DNA of 63,980 nucleotides, counting the filler. It is 7 parts of 7 records of this genome, joined end to end, with 100 filler letters (N's around TTAATTAATTAA, not from the genome) between each part and the next. Parts side by side here need not be neighbours in the genome. Positions count along the whole stretch, not along the records: positions 26,644 to 51,387 come from SRR31156797_18086; 6 more parts are not named here. One strand, 5' to 3'. Shown here piece by piece: positions 26,544 through 51,487 of this stretch. The translations under genes were made by a program, and so were the position numbers. The notes beneath the pieces are model-generated. The model searched no databases. It saw only the letters and a list, made by a program, of their open reading frames with translations, and was not told the DNA's origin. Each line of letters starts with the position of its first letter. Positions within the stretch are counted from its first letter, which is position 1.

Positions 26544-26783
26544 NNNNNNNNNNNNNNNNNNNNNNNNNNNNNNNNNNNNNNNNNNNNTTAATTAATTAAN
26601 NNNNNNNNNNNNNNNNNNNNNNNNNNNNNNNNNNNNNNNNNNNGGTAAATGTTAAGGATGAGGGAAGTATTTGCCTGTTTTTCAGCGGTAACGTTTGCAG
26701 CGTTTCACGCAAGCCTGATAGTTATCTGGCTGCAGAGAAATCGTAAAGCGCTATGCAAAAATCATCAGATGTGTACAATAATA

Positions 26784-43884: not shown

Positions 43885-43936
43885 AAACCATTTGCTACGA
43901 CTCCGCTCAGCAACCGTACTTCGACTCCGCTCAGCA
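43885..43936 (+). repeat. Tandem pair of C(T/A)CGACTCCGCTCAGC REP-like motifs
   Basis: AACCATTTGCTACGACTCCGCTCAGCAACCG TACTTCGACTCCGCTCAGCA. The first unit nearly equals the reverse complement of 50792-50823. Confidence 0.8.
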
Positions 43937-43982
43937 GCAATGCTAGCTTCTTTCAGCAACCTATAGTGAAATTAGTTAAGAA

Positions 43983-46974: not shown

Positions 46975-48930
46975 CTACTGAATAGCCTTACGCATTTTCA
47001 GAATATATTTTGAACGATCCAGGGGACTAATTCCCTTAAATGGCCTGATTACACCCTGTTCATCTACGCATGGTTGATAGGAATGAAGCCGTGTAGATAT
47101 TTTTGCCTTGCCACCGGAGCGAGAGCTCAATTGAATGGGATATTCCAATGATGTGGCTAACGGTAAAAGTCCGGTTAATGTAAATTTTCCATCATTCATT
47201 TCAGGACTCTCAAATGAACCTCTCATTTGGGTTATATCACCTGTAATAACTCCTAATAAATCTTCGGTGGCTGAAATTTTAAATTCCAAAACAGGCTCTA
47301 GTAAGGTTGTGCCAATATCTTTTAATCCCTCCATAATTCCCATTGGAGTAGCTATGATAAAATCACCCGGGCGAGAGTGAATTTCATGATCTTCTCCATC
47401 AATCAGGGTAATTTTAAGATCAGTAACTTCCCATCCCTTAATACCTTGCTTCAAAGCCTCAGGAATGGTTCTCTCCACCTCATTCTGATATTTACGGTGA
47501 ATTTTATCTACACTAACTTCAGATTTGTAAACGACTCCTTTTCCTGGTTCACCAGGTTCAATTCTGAATTTTACAACTGCCCAACAAGGCTTAGGCATGG
47601 TGTATTCAGCAAATCCATATCCTTCGGCAACGGGTTTCTCTTTATAAATGACAGTAGGATCTTCAAATTGAGCTTCGATGTTAAATCTGTCTTGCAAAAT
47701 GGATGTAAGCACTTCCATTTGTATCCAACCCATTACTTTCACATGTAATTCCTTATCCTCCTTGAGCCATTCAAAGCTAAGTTCGGGATTCTCAAGGGTT
47801 AAAAACTGCAATGCTTCTGCCAGCGCTATATAATCTTTATCCAAAGCAGGTTTTACCTGAACTGTAAGCAGTGGTGATTGCAATTTATTAGTGTCATTTT
47901 CATCCGAAGGAGCCTTTCCAAGCACATTGCCAACCTCAACCTCTTTAAGTCCATAAATATTGACTATATCGCCCTCATTTGCCATTTTTAGGTCTATAAT
48001 ATCTCCACCTCTGTTTTGTTTTAGCAAAGTAACTTTCTCCTCAATTTCTTTTGTGCTGTTTTTTATGAGATCGCGCGGTTGAATTTGTCCCTTTAGAATT
48101 TTGGCATATGTAATTAGTCCCTGGCCAGATTCATTAGTTACTCCGAATACCTTTGCAGAAAAAGGAGCATCATCATTGAAATTTGAATACGAAAGACCGA
48201 CAATATTTTGTAGCAATAAGTCAATACTTAATCCGGTTTTAGCACTTCCCAAAATAACAGGTGTTATTTTTGCCTTAATAATTGCTTGTTTCAGTGCCTC
48301 ATTAAGTACTTCAAAACTCGGTAATTCTCCTGATAGATATTTCTCAAGCACTTCATCATTTAGACTTGCAAGTGCTTCAATTATTTCTTCATTAAGATTC
48401 TCGCCGTGCCATAATAATTTCGAAGTTGCTTCGGCTGTTTCTTCTCCATCAATTTCGTTAAGCACAATTACATTTTCGCTAAACTGCTTTTCCAATTCAG
48501 ATATAACCAACTCACTATCAGCACCAACCCTGTCAACCTTGTTGATGAAAACAATAACAGGGATTCCTGCTTGCTGCAATACTTTCCATAAGGTTTCGGT
48601 ATGTGCCTGAATACCTTCCACTGCAGATATAACCAAAACAGCCACATCAATTACACCTAAAACTCGCTCTACTTCAGCAGAAAAATCAACATGACCTGGT
48701 GTGTCAATTAAGAAGATCTCAGTATTATCCCATTCAATGGTTGTATAAGCAGATTGCACAGAAATGCCTCTATTCTTTTCTACCGCTAATCGGTCTGTTT
48801 GGGCGGTTCCATCATCCACGCTTCCAAGGTTTTTGGTAGCTCCACTCACATACAATAGCTGCTCGGTAAGTGATGTTTTACCGGCATCAACGTGCGCTAA
48901 AATTCCTATGCTGATTTTTGGTTTATGCAT
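46975..48930 (-). CDS. TetM/TetO-like ribosomal protection protein-related translational GTPase
   Basis: AHVDAGKTSLTE, RGISV, DTPGHVDF and NKVD motifs; 651 aa from ATG 48930; RPP-like C-terminus DRSKY. Confidence 0.8.
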   Translation of the reverse strand: MHKPKISIGILAHVDAGKTSLTEQLLYVSGATKNLGSVDDGTAQTDRLAVEKNRGISVQSAYTTIEWDNTEIFLIDTPGHVDFSAEVERVLGVIDVAVLVISAVEGIQAHTETLWKVLQQAGIPVIVFINKVDRVGADSELVISELEKQFSENVIVLNEIDGEETAEATSKLLWHGENLNEEIIEALASLNDEVLEKYLSGELPSFEVLNEALKQAIIKAKITPVILGSAKTGLSIDLLLQNIVGLSYSNFNDDAPFSAKVFGVTNESGQGLITYAKILKGQIQPRDLIKNSTKEIEEKVTLLKQNRGGDIIDLKMANEGDIVNIYGLKEVEVGNVLGKAPSDENDTNKLQSPLLTVQVKPALDKDYIALAEALQFLTLENPELSFEWLKEDKELHVKVMGWIQMEVLTSILQDRFNIEAQFEDPTVIYKEKPVAEGYGFAEYTMPKPCWAVVKFRIEPGEPGKGVVYKSEVSVDKIHRKYQNEVERTIPEALKQGIKGWEVTDLKITLIDGEDHEIHSRPGDFIIATPMGIMEGLKDIGTTLLEPVLEFKISATEDLLGVITGDITQMRGSFESPEMNDGKFTLTGLLPLATSLEYPIQLSSRSGGKAKISTRLHSYQPCVDEQGVIRPFKGISPLDRSKYILKMRKAIQ

Positions 48931-49072
48931 TGTATAATAGAAAAGCTGTAAACTTAAGTATTTTGCAGCATTTATAAATATTAAAACCATTAAGTTATTA
49001 TGTTTGAAAAAGCATAAGCTAAAATTTTTATATTGGTTTACCACAATACAACAACCATAAAAATTAAAGCTT

Positions 49073-50155
49073 ATGCCACGTAAAATTAATGAAAATTCAT
49101 TTGAAGGTCAATCTATCTTTATTGGAATAGATGTGCACAAAAAGAGTTGGAAAGTGAACATACTTGGAAAACATTACGAACACAAAGCATTTAGTCAGGA
49201 TCCTGATCCTACAATTTTAGCTAGTTATGTGAAAAAGAATTTTCCTGGTGCTGAGTTTCATGCGGTATATGAAGCAGGATTTAGCGGATTTGAAGCATGT
49301 CGATCACTTAATAATTTAGGGATTAATTGTATGGTTATTCATCCAGCAGATGTGCCTACAAGTTCTAAAGAAAGACTGCAAAAGACAGATAAAATAGATA
49401 GCCGTAAACTTGCGCGAGCACTCAGAAGTGGTGAACTTGAAGCAATCCATATTCCTGCAAAAGAGTTAGAAGCGAATAGAGCTCTAGTTCGGCAACGATT
49501 TAGAATTGTAAAAGATATTAGTAGGATAAAAAACAGACTTAAATCATTACTTTTTCAATTTGATATTTCAATTCCTAATGAATTTACAGATTATCAGAGT
49601 AGATACTGGTCAAAGACCTATACAAACTGGCTTAAAGAACTAACTATCAAACATGAATCACTAAAACAAACTATTAATAATTATGTGAAAATTGGTGAAA
49701 TATTACGATCAGAACTTTTAACTATTAATAAGCAAATAAGACAATTATCTCGCTCACAACTATATGAACACAACCATAATCTGTTACTAGGAATACCTGG
49801 TATAGGTACTATTGCTGCGATGATAATTTTAACAGAATTAGGAGATATTAAAAGATTTAAACGGATAGATGAGCTTTGTAGCTATGTTGGATTAATTCCA
49901 AGAATGTACGGATCTGGAGATAAGATGCAAACAGGAAAGTTAACTAAAAGAGGAAGGAAAATTCTGAAAATAATATTAATTGAAGCCTCTTGGATTGCAA
50001 TTAGAAAAGATCCTGCATTAATGCTGAAATTCAACGAGCTTTCAGAGAAGATGAAAAAGAATAAAGCAATTATACGTATTGCAAAAAAGCTATTAAGCCG
50101 AATTAGATTCGTATTAGTCAATCAACAACCTTATGAATATAGTATAGTAGAATAA
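49073..50155 (+). CDS. IS110 family transposase/recombinase
   Basis: DEDD RuvC-like residues GIDVH, YEAG and KTDKIDS; C-terminal IPGIG...GLIP...SG with the catalytic Ser. Confidence 0.95.
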   Translation: MPRKINENSFEGQSIFIGIDVHKKSWKVNILGKHYEHKAFSQDPDPTILASYVKKNFPGAEFHAVYEAGFSGFEACRSLNNLGINCMVIHPADVPTSSKERLQKTDKIDSRKLARALRSGELEAIHIPAKELEANRALVRQRFRIVKDISRIKNRLKSLLFQFDISIPNEFTDYQSRYWSKTYTNWLKELTIKHESLKQTINNYVKIGEILRSELLTINKQIRQLSRSQLYEHNHNLLLGIPGIGTIAAMIILTELGDIKRFKRIDELCSYVGLIPRMYGSGDKMQTGKLTKRGRKILKIILIEASWIAIRKDPALMLKFNELSEKMKKNKAIIRIAKKLLSRIRFVLVNQQPYEYSIVE

Positions 50156-50182
50156 AATAAATTATTTCAAACCTTAAAAATT

Positions 50183-50335
50183 GGATGGAGGAATAAACGG
50201 TGTTTAATTTTTGCGGCACTCCAATATGAAGAAGACCGCTACATTAAGATTACGTCCTCCTTCCTCTTTAAAAAGAAAAGTACGTTGCAGCTATAATTAC
50301 AGACTGCTGATAGAAGATTGATTAAGAGGATTTTG
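50183..50335 (+). ncRNA. Candidate bridge/seek RNA of the IS110 element
   Basis: Two parallel stem-internal loop-stem modules carrying CATTAAGA (target match) and ATAGAAG (donor-junction match). Boundaries are approximate. Confidence 0.65.
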
Positions 50336-50520
50336 GAATAAATAATAAACGCTTTTTTTAAAAGCAAAAATAGGCCAATCAAAGAGTCTGTCAAGGTTAT
50401 ATAAACTTCGCTTCGCTCAGACCTTGACAAAATCTTTTATTGACCTAAAAGATGCATTGAGAAAAAAAGCTCGAAAAAAATAAAAGTTTTAGTCAACTTG
50501 CTTGGATTTCAACATAGAAG

Positions 50521-50582
50521 AAGTTAAGAGTAATTAAGAGCTCTCCTTTAACTTCTTAACTAATCGTAATGCCTTTATGGTT
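50521..50582. repeat. AACCATTAAG-family palindrome unit 1 (right part; left 10 bp at 48985-48994)
   Basis: AAGTTAAGAGTAATTAAGAGCTCTCCTTTAACTTCTTAACTAATCGTAATGCCTTTATGGTT aligns with units 2-4. Confidence 0.85.
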
Positions 50583-50607
50583 CAAGAAAAACTACTATTT
50601 AAAATAT

Positions 50608-50702
50608 AACCATTAAGCACTTCGACAAGCTCAGCATAAACAGTGAAGAATAATTAAGGGCTATGCTTTAACTTCATAACTAACCTTAATGTCTTAATGG
50701 TT
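50608..50702. repeat. AACCATTAAG-family palindrome unit 2 with nested CTTCGACAAGCTCAGC
   Basis: AACCATTAAG[CACTTCGACAAGCTCAGCATAAA]CAGTGAAGAATAATTAAG...CTTAATGTCTTAATGGTT. Confidence 0.85.
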
Positions 50703-50729
50703 AAAAAAAAAAGGTCAAATAAAAATACT

Positions 50730-50823
50730 AACCATTAAGCAGTTAAGTATAATTAAGAGCTCTACTTTAGCTTATTAACTAACCTTAATATCGGTTGCTG
50801 AGCGAAGTCGTAGCATAATGGTT
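50730..50823. repeat. AACCATTAAG-family palindrome unit 3 with nested reverse GCTGAGCGAAGTCG
   Basis: AACCATTAAGCAGTTAAGTATAATTAAGAGCTC...CTTAATATC[GGTTGCTGAGCGAAGTCGTAGC]ATAATGGTT. Confidence 0.85.
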
Positions 50824-50832
50824 CAAAAACTA

Positions 50833-51249
50833 TCATTTAGGCAGTCTTCTAAAATACTCATTTACAAAAGGCTTTATTGTTTCGGTAATGTTCATAACAT
50901 TAAAGTTAATTAAAAGGCCTTGTGGTTTTTTCAACAACTTCATGTATGTAATCAACTGTGCCTCATGTATTGGCAAGGTCTGCTCAATCGCTTTCAACTC
51001 GACGATAACAGTGTCATTTACCAGTAAATCTAAGCATAATTCTGCCTCAATATCAATTGTGTCGTAAACTACAGGAACTTTTACCTGCTGCTTCACATCG
51101 TAACCCTTCTTTACTAATTCGTGTTTTAAACACTTCTCATATATACTTTCCAATAAACCTGGACCAAGTGCTTTATGAACTTTGATAGCCATTCCAGTAA
51201 TCTCATAGGATAGATGAGTCACATCAGTTTTTGTTTTGTAATAATCCAT
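50833..51249 (-). CDS. GxxExxY protein (PD-(D/E)XK-like nuclease fold)
   Basis: VHKALGPGLLESIY, DLLV...VELK, HEAQL..Y.K and GLLINF motifs. Confidence 0.93.
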   Translation of the reverse strand: MDYYKTKTDVTHLSYEITGMAIKVHKALGPGLLESIYEKCLKHELVKKGYDVKQQVKVPVVYDTIDIEAELCLDLLVNDTVIVELKAIEQTLPIHEAQLITYMKLLKKPQGLLINFNVMNITETIKPFVNEYFRRLPK

Positions 51250-51314
51250 GGGTAATAAATAAGCTTTGAAAACTAACTTGTTTGATCTATAAAACTAGTA
51301 AAATCAAATAATTA

Positions 51315-51386
51315 AACTATTAAAAATATAAGAATAATAAAAATCATGAATGTAACTTCTTAACTAATCTTAATACCTTAATGGTT
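51315..51386. repeat. AACCATTAAG-family palindrome unit 4 (upstream of GxxExxY)
   Basis: AACTATTAAAAATATAAGAATAATAAAA...TAACTTCTTAACTAATCTTAATACCTTAATGGTT. Confidence 0.8.
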
Positions 51387-51487
51387 TNNNNNNNNNNNNN
51401 NNNNNNNNNNNNNNNNNNNNNNNNNNNNNNNTTAATTAATTAANNNNNNNNNNNNNNNNNNNNNNNNNNNNNNNNNNNNNNNNNNNN

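Follow-up and report, generated by a model that had tools for sequence, protein, structure and literature searches.

Does the non-coding DNA behind the transposase gene of an insertion sequence (IS) encode the RNA that selects its insertion site? The question is raised by an element at 48995–50520 of a window of 63,980 nucleotides, filler included, in which seven parts of one genome are joined end to end (positions 26,644 to 51,387 come from SRR31156797_18086). A first-pass annotation of the letters of the window had marked 50183–50335 as a candidate IS110/IS1111-type bridge/seek RNA with target- and donor-binding loops, and had proposed covariation of the guides with insertion sites among homologues as the check. 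The guides do covary with the insertion sites, and the stretch very probably encodes the bridge/seek guide RNA of an RNA-guided insertion sequence. The region was correctly picked out; the RNA is longer than 50183–50335, as its ends are closed by a further stem, 50165–50171 with 50332–50338.

Homologous loci and RNA model

Homologous loci (n = 89) were fetched by transposase relatedness, which with the window gave 90 sources. Nine loci came from species-representative genomes (transposase identity 64–68%), all metagenome-assembled genomes labelled Bacteroidales, Marinilabiliaceae, Mariniphaga, Cyclobacteriaceae or Ignavibacteriaceae, and 80 came from metagenomes (transposase identity 45–71%). 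From the genome labels, the hosts appear to be Bacteroidota and relatives. A covariance model was built on 60 aligned 3′ regions, with the window in the seed alignment, and it matched 81 of the 90 sources (window included), in every case on the transposase strand directly 3′ of the open reading frame (ORF). The nine misses were six contigs ending <125 nt past the ORF and three with a shortened or replaced 3′ part. The window was matched at 50162–50348 with 163 bits, a score that it has by construction because it belongs to the seed alignment. At locus L049 (1186–1539), a full-length transposase ORF is followed by an array of ~22-nt direct repeats instead of a guide RNA, the 3′ part of the element having apparently been replaced. 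For the comparison of guides with DNA, 67 RNAs were parsed by sequence anchors and the element ends were then located, with no AG filter in the location of the ends.

Target guides in loop 1

The 3′ strand of loop 1 contains CATTAAGA (50242–50249), which had been equated with the empty target CATT-AAG-A. The first seven bases, CATTAAG, are those of the left flank at 48988–48994, and A50249 probably lies outside the guide; as a target guide this eighth base was rejected, since agreement between the base after AG and the following target base, seen in 22 of 43 loci, is enriched weakly if at all. The left flank finishes in AG in 55/55 loci, and AG occupies the same place of the loop-1 3′ strand in 67/67 RNAs. 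An AAG core had been proposed; the invariant core is AG, and the base preceding it varies among A, G and T. Of 48 unique pairs, 38 to 47 have the same base in guide and flank at each position from −1 to −5, but only 18 at −6, a drop from which the left target guide is taken as five bases plus AG. Cognate left guides and flanks agreed at 4.81 of 6 positions, versus 3.00 for non-cognate pairs (0/10,000 permutations as good).

The 5′ strand of loop 1 complements AG and the right flank. The register found most often, best in 35/50 unique right junctions, places the final U ahead of the inner stem opposite the core A and its neighbour (U or C) opposite the G. Over seven positions the cognate match was 4.44, versus 2.97 for non-cognate pairs, again with 0/10,000 permutations as good. 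In the window, TTAATTTTT (50204–50212) pairs with the core AG and the right flank at 50521–50527 with two rU:dG wobbles, as the annotation had it, and the pairing extends to 50203 with 50528, giving ten contiguous pairs, three of them rU:dG. Across the loci, 58 distinct guide pairs match their own flanks, a record of natural retargeting. The reservation that 7–8 nt matches can arise by chance does not hold across the homologous loci, where the matches of guides to flanks and ends beat all permutations on the left, right and donor sides alike.

The two strands of loop 1 could instead form mainly a structural helix with each other, their likeness to the flanks coming from repeat-rich or palindromic targets. 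The minimum-energy fold of the window does pair them with each other over 6 bp, strand-strand duplexes are more stable for cognate (−4.18 kcal/mol) than for non-cognate (−3.20 kcal/mol) combinations, and many right flanks repeat the motif of the left flank. However, in ten RNAs, that of the window (−1.1 kcal/mol) among them, the two loop strands hardly pair, with energies weaker than −3 kcal/mol, and these RNAs match their flanks equally well, with 4.5/5 on the left and 5.5/7 on the right, and in L003, L033 and L044 each strand matches a different flank. Because the flank matches are as good without strand-strand pairing, the loop-1 strands are guides and not merely a helix, and the structural explanation is highly improbable.

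The two bases after the AG of the left target guide (AU in the window) may have a role of their own, recalling the handshake guides of IS621. The corresponding bases equal the first two bases of the left end in 25/73 loci, and in 10/12 loci of divergent subgroups (AC/AC, TT/TT), and in the window one of the two matches. This is suggestive only, because the independent lineages are few.

Donor guides in loop 2

ATAGAAG (50310–50316), in the 3′ strand of loop 2, had been read as the circle-junction sequence, and it does match the last seven bases of the element, 50514–50520. ATAGAAG is found in 60/67 RNAs, and the right end finishes in ATAGAAG in 52/53 loci. At L008 and L076 the right junctions read ...CATAG+AG and not ...CATAGA+AG, which is one base less than expected from the donor guide.

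The second donor guide, which had been thought not clearly readable, was located on the 5′ strand as AGUAC (50279–50283) by its covariation with the left ends. Reverse-complemented, this guide is AA-N-GTATT or AA-N-GTGTT, and it covaries with the opening five bases of the left end (GTATT/GTATT in 19 loci, GTGTT/GTGTT in 13, ATACT/ATATT in 1). All five positions matched in 33/55 loci and four of five in 21, with 0/10,000 permutations as good. In the subgroup with 45–49% transposase identity, donor covariation was seen by eye (e.g. TTCCT, ACCTT). Left ends begin with GT in 59/61 main-group loci.

Architecture of the predicted RNA

Both modules are built as the annotation had drawn them: GGAGGA (50187–50192) with TCCTCC (50255–50260) and GCGG (50213–50216) with CCGC (50236–50239) in module 1, and TCCTCTT (50262–50268) with AAGAGGA (50324–50330) and GCAG (50287–50290) with CTGC (50304–50307) in module 2, enclosing the loop strands given above. 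On the alignments, the outer stem of module 1 comprises 50187–50191 with 50256–50260 plus ACG (50197–50199) with CGU (50253–50255), and its inner stem 50213–50217 with 50234 and 50236–50239, C50217 pairing with G50234 across bulged A50235. In module 2, the outer stem is 50262–50268 with 50324–50330 and the inner stem 50287–50291 with 50302 and 50304–50307. On the model-fitted alignment (78 distinct RNAs), 95.5% of the cells of these five helices are paired and 17/25 pairs have changed on both sides (0/500 shuffles as good; slid controls 41–53% paired). On a MAFFT alignment the corresponding values are 95.2% and 9/25 (0/500 shuffles; slid controls 39–60%).

The closing stem, 50165–50171 with 50332–50338, had a mean energy of −5.1 kcal/mol for cognate versus −2.0 kcal/mol for non-cognate strands (0/2000 permutations as good), from which the RNA is longer than first proposed; it probably extends from about 50165 to 50338, the predicted region starting 10 nt past the transposase stop codon. 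The extension of the outer stem by ACCU/AGGU that appears in the minimum-energy fold was rejected, as covariation favours the module-2 outer stem.

A frame common to both modules had been described. The inner-stem motif, GC(A/G)GC with G-A-C(C/U)GC and its bulged A, is indeed common to the two loops, which otherwise have only AGAU in common; overall the modules are not significantly alike. Their origin as tandem duplicates was considered and rejected, the global alignment of one with the other being beaten or matched by 875/1000 shuffles for the window and 573/1000 for the consensus. In loop 1 the third pair of the inner stem is non-standard in 52/78 RNAs (A opposite C in the consensus), and the matching pair in loop 2 is Watson-Crick and covarying (AU 38, GC 33).

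That non-standard pair bears on the strand, since in an RNA transcribed from the minus strand, reading the complementary DNA strands, it would become a U:G wobble, and a sigma-70-like site is present on that strand at 50394–50367. A minus-strand RNA would, however, turn ~50 G:U cells over ~15 pairs into A-C mismatches. Mismatches between guides and DNA also favour the plus strand: on the right, 34 are wobbles for a plus-strand RNA versus 5 for a minus-strand RNA, and on the left 13 versus 6. The published IS1111 seekRNAs, as described in PMC11187229, likewise lie downstream of the gene and on the strand of the transposase. Transcription from the minus strand is thus very unlikely, and the guide RNA is read here on the plus strand. 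A reading of the region as nothing more than a structured 3′ untranslated region, or a terminator, at the end of the transposase mRNA, with chance 7–9-mers of AT-rich DNA as flank matches, is scarcely credible: the fold of the window is not significantly more stable than shuffles, the predicted RNA has a GC content of 0.33 in an AT-rich window, and the matching strands were picked after the flanks had been seen, but corresponding loop positions match the adjoining flanks at dozens of loci whose targets differ, at a level that no permutation reached on either side, AG is invariant both at the junction and in the RNA, and no terminator-like site was called.

Table 1. Coordinates of the element, its gene, the predicted guide RNA and the target halves
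Feature	Position	Strand	Evidence
Transposase/recombinase gene, 360 aa, DEDD (RuvC-like) + Tnp domains, intact frame	49073..50155	+	Pfam, NCBIfam and PDB sequence matches
Whole predicted bridge/seek RNA, ~174 nt	50165..50338	+	model match; outer-stem covariation
Module 1, predicted target-binding loop	50187..50260	+	helices 1–3 87–99% paired; compensatory changes at 9/13 pairs
Module 2, predicted donor-binding loop	50262..50330	+	helices 4–5 97–99% paired; compensatory changes at 8/12 pairs
Right target guide, loop 1 5′ strand	50203..50212	+	covariation with right flanks
Left target guide, loop 1 3′ strand	50242..50248	+	identical to left flank CATTA + AG; pairs with bottom strand
Two bases after the guide's AG (AU), possible handshake guide for left end	50249..50250	+	match to left-end bases
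Right donor guide AGUAC, pairing with 48999–48995; GUU (50284–50286) faces core	50279..50286	+	covariation
Left donor guide ATAGA + AG	50310..50316	+	identical to last 7 element bases
Left target half CATTA + left AG core copy (48993–48994)	48988..48994	+	identical to RNA 50242–50248
Right target half AAGTTAAG	50521..50528	+	complementary to 50203–50210 with wobbles; empty-site alignment
Left end, 78 nt: TTATT, then subterminal inverted repeat ATGTTTGAAAA (49000–49010)	48995..49072	+	covaries with right end
Right end: subterminal inverted repeat ATTTCAACAT (50504–50513), AGA, right AG core copy (50519–50520)	50501..50520	+	
Conserved long hairpin inside right end	50374..50447	+	54 loci by pattern

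Evidence weighing against a guide RNA

Several observations count against the interpretation of the region as a guide RNA of this element. None of the listed sequencing runs that contain the stretch is recorded as an RNA run, and the RNA is a prediction from DNA sequence. The permutation tests were uncorrected for kinship among the loci, and the structural counts in Table 1 come from the model-fitted alignment, which leans to the model. Folded as a single sequence, the window RNA has z = −1.73, with 14/200 shuffles as stable, and its minimum-energy fold misses the module-2 outer stem; as the fold is not better than shuffles, an excess over chance is not demonstrable from the window alone. No relevant Rfam family was found for 48800–51400 with E up to 10 (the sole row was a chance long non-coding RNA match, E = 4.1), which means that no curated model covers the region and nothing more.

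Other points concern the guides. Many targets are short direct repeats, as a result of which non-cognate guides match at about half of the positions and the loop strands are partly self-complementary. Right-guide registers other than the commonest were best at 11 junctions by 1 nt, at 3 by 2 nt and at 1 by 2 nt the opposite way, and the register of the right donor guide is one base longer than that of the right target guide. The flanks of L014 match its own guides at only 2/5 positions on the left and 2/7 on the right, apart from AG; possible causes at this locus (L084 has the same left flank) are insertion off target, a chimera in the contig or another history. In the window itself, of the five positions of AGUAC against the left end TTATT, three are Watson-Crick pairs, one is a wobble and the first left-end base is mismatched, a donor match of 3/5 (4/5 with the wobble) that is the lowest of the 55 loci, and the element is present as a single copy in its probable source assembly. 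The weak donor match and the single copy suggest that this copy may be poorly mobile.

Transposase

The transposase has the two domains of the IS110 family, an N-terminal DEDD (RuvC-like) domain (PF01548 at residues 17–162, 6.8e-17) and a C-terminal Tnp domain (PF02371 at residues 236–316, 7.5e-21). It scores 212 bits against NCBIfam NF033542, 'IS110 family RNA-guided transposase' (cut-off 140), and by PDB sequence search its only solved relatives are the transposases of ISCro4 (3.6e-17) and IS621 (8.8e-14). Residues D20, E67, D106, D109, S281 and G282 are invariant across nine relatives. The catalytic residues align with the IGIDV, EA, KTDxxD and SG motifs of the ISCro4 transposase, and correspond by motif, not by structure, to the residues D11/E60/D102/D105/S241 given for IS621 (PMC11208158). 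The catalytic serine motif of the IS110 family, G--P----SG, is present. The form GL-P----SG (here GLIPRMYGSG) is also present, but it is not decisive for the IS1111 clade because ISCro4 has the motif too. Placement in the IS1111 or IS110 clade by likeness to plasmid-borne elements was tried and set aside as not decisive, all plasmid-borne family matches being <35% identical (~26% to IS4321/IS5075 by tblastn).

Element boundaries and insertion site

When the flanks were joined by coordinates, they aligned gap-free to an uninterrupted repeat copy at 50730, which fixes the element at 48995–50520 (1526 bp, with one copy of the duplicated AG counted). In all likelihood it is an insertion sequence of IS1111 type within the IS110 family, present in one copy. 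On either side of the coding sequence are non-coding ends, 78 nt (left) and 365 nt (right) long. The insertion point lies within one arm of a host palindromic repeat, for whose arm motif, AACCATTAAG, the window has 5 occurrences versus 0.3 expected. A contig of the probable source assembly spans the whole stretch, with depth the same as that of the flanks (DNA contigs, three DNA runs); no joint skipping the element and no second copy were found among the DNA contigs of that assembly. One soil DNA run held short pieces of the stretch only.

The host palindromic repeat family occupies 50522–51395 and 48985–48994, with a 70-nt unit present four times. Other repeat arms carry the left target half and AG intact, yet are unoccupied by the element. 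Inserts of 22–24 nt are found in the repeat copies at 50618–50641 and 50786–50807, one of them exactly at the point corresponding to the element's insertion point in another copy; the insert motif recurs twice near 43900 (43893–43940), and it has a 10-mer in common with the hairpin loop of the element (50411–50420), possibly by chance.

Ends, putative junction promoter and right-end hairpin

The subterminal inverted repeat is 10–11 bp long, set in by 5 nt from the left end and by 3 nt from the right core copy, with a 1-nt indel between the ends. It covaries between the two ends in L021, L042 and L051. The left copy, ATGTTTGAAAA, also reads as a Bacteroidetes-type −7 box, TAnnTTTG, which is found in 41/42 unique end pairs. 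Across the circle junction, a TTG in the right end (50498–50500) stands 20 nt upstream of this box, and the spacer is 20 in 38/42 unique end pairs. TTG and TAnnTTTG are described as the −33 and −7 motifs of the Bacteroidetes primary sigma factor (PMC7366714), and promoters formed at the junction and driving both transposase and RNA have been described for IS1111 and IS110 elements (PMC11187229).

In the mechanism that we infer, the joined ends of the excised circle would form a junction promoter from which the transposase, and the RNA behind it, would be transcribed. The 3′ non-coding region would thereby supply the ~174-nt bridge/seek RNA from the plus strand, probably by processing of the transposase transcript, and the RNA would be bound by the transposase. 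Loop 1 would read the insertion site and loop 2 the joined ends of the excised circle, AUAGA+AG matching the right end and AGUAC pairing with the first five bases of the left end. Strand exchange at the AG dinucleotide would follow, carried out by a tetramer of the DEDD/serine recombinase, as in IS621.

Beyond the predicted RNA, the right end holds a conserved long hairpin (Table 1), in which 12/19 predicted pairs show compensatory changes among 45 sequences. Its inner stem pairs GTCAAGG (50390–50396) with CCTTGAC (50422–50428), and conservation extends to the apical loop (~23 nt) and to a symmetric internal loop. The hairpin is absent from several sublineages and gave no Rfam match. It was also considered as a classic plus-strand terminator, and none was called. 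It could have a part in the recombination reaction or in its control, for instance in the formation of the guide-RNA 3′ end, in blocking antisense transcription or in the binding of a factor.

Neighbouring sequence

A translational GTPase gene (46975–48930, minus strand) adjoins the left end of the element. Its best match is a tetracycline ribosomal-protection model (552 bits, below the cut-off of 775). As homology begins at residue 44 of the longest ORF, translation probably starts from the ATG at 48930, which puts the divergently oriented gene 64 bp away from the element. The N runs at 51388–51487, broken by a short readable stretch, read as a gap or masked stretch and coincide with the 100-letter filler between joined parts.

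Relation to known systems

With the IS1111 seekRNA elements ISEc11, ISPa11, ISKpn4 and ISPst6 (Siddiquee et al., 2024; PMC11187229), this element has in common a DEDD transposase with a downstream non-coding region and, as described there, the order of the guides (the segment pairing with the target's top strand lies 5′ of that pairing with the bottom strand), two matches that overlap at the insertion point, and natural retargeting through changes of guide bases alone; ISPa11 likewise inserts into repeated palindromic host elements. Marks given for the IS1111 group are subterminal inverted repeats of 7–17 bp, a long non-coding region downstream of the gene and a short left end (PMC11187229, PMC11208160), and the element has such repeats together with a long right and a short left end. 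It differs in its transposase, which has 360 aa versus 330–350 aa given for the IS1111 family (PMC11187229) and stands, by the identity noted above, far from the plasmid-borne IS1111-type transposases of IS4321/IS5075, and in its target and AG core, which are unlike those of the IS1111 seekRNA examples listed in PMC11187229. Short forms of seekRNA are reported as 82–96 nt and long forms as 148–172 nt (PMC13604230), versus 74 nt for module 1 and ~174 nt for the whole predicted RNA here.

The likeness to the IS621 bridge RNA lies in the dinucleotide core in both guides and in a donor loop that reads the joined ends (PMC11208160), in the conserved catalytic D/E/D/D and Ser-Gly motifs of an otherwise remotely matching transposase and, suggestively, in the two guide-adjacent bases, which behave like the handshake guides described in PMC11208158. 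On the other strand the AG core reads CT, the core of IS621. There the left guides are described as pairing with the bottom strand and the right guides as pairing with the top strand, with the CT core included in all of them (PMC11208160); the arrangement here is the same, with AG. In contrast to IS621 as reported, which has its RNA 5′ of the gene in the left end, the RNA here comes 3′ of the gene and belongs to the right end, the order of the guides within each loop is reversed when taken by element orientation, and the subterminal repeats are 10–11 bp versus 2–3 bp. The geometry centred on the RNA is nevertheless the same as that reported for IS621, with a 5′ guide that ends in (C/U)U opposite the DNA AG and a 3′ guide that carries AG opposite CT, which suggests that the 'reversed order' of IS1111 amounts to an inversion of the gene-RNA cassette relative to the ends.

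Bridge RNAs have been predicted in 93% of the IS1111 elements of ISfinder (Durrant et al., 2024; PMC11208160), with the same location in the right end and with reported pairing to target and donor over 8–14 nt. A multi-loop is reported to hold the donor-binding bases of many IS1111 orthologues (PMC11208160), whereas here they lie in a simple internal loop like that of the target. Given those predictions and the NCBIfam name, which calls the protein family RNA-guided, the suggestion of a new programmable recombinase was overstated. What is described here is probably a new subfamily of the known RNA-guided IS1111-type systems, and the mechanism is not new. A 2026 preprint clusters 181,180 sequences adjoining IS110 recombinases (bioRxiv 10.64898/2026.10.21.760802), so the family may already be catalogued there, and the subfamily or its donor-loop architecture may already appear in published work.

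Taken singly, some features may set the group apart: its bridge RNA may consist of two like-framed simple internal loops, with a transposase <35% identical to plasmid-borne members, and the 1–2 nt shifts at right junctions could reflect a tolerance of different distances from the core to the right target half. That all of this holds together, as a distinct uncharacterised IS1111-like branch in Bacteroidota and neighbours with the hairpin as a third module and variable spacing between core and right half tolerated, is rather unlikely.

Significance

The known picture of how such elements work is unchanged by these results. The element would be a compact addition to the natural RNA-guided recombinases, with a 360-aa recombinase and a ~174-nt guide RNA. 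Compared with their own sites, the 58 guide pairs point to the guide positions that matter, which are five plus AG for the left guide and some seven beyond AG for the right one, and the series supports the same RNA-centred geometry and CT/AG core for IS1111 and IS110. For annotation, a guide RNA would account both for the 365-nt 'non-coding' right end and for the preference of the element for one arm of the host repeat.

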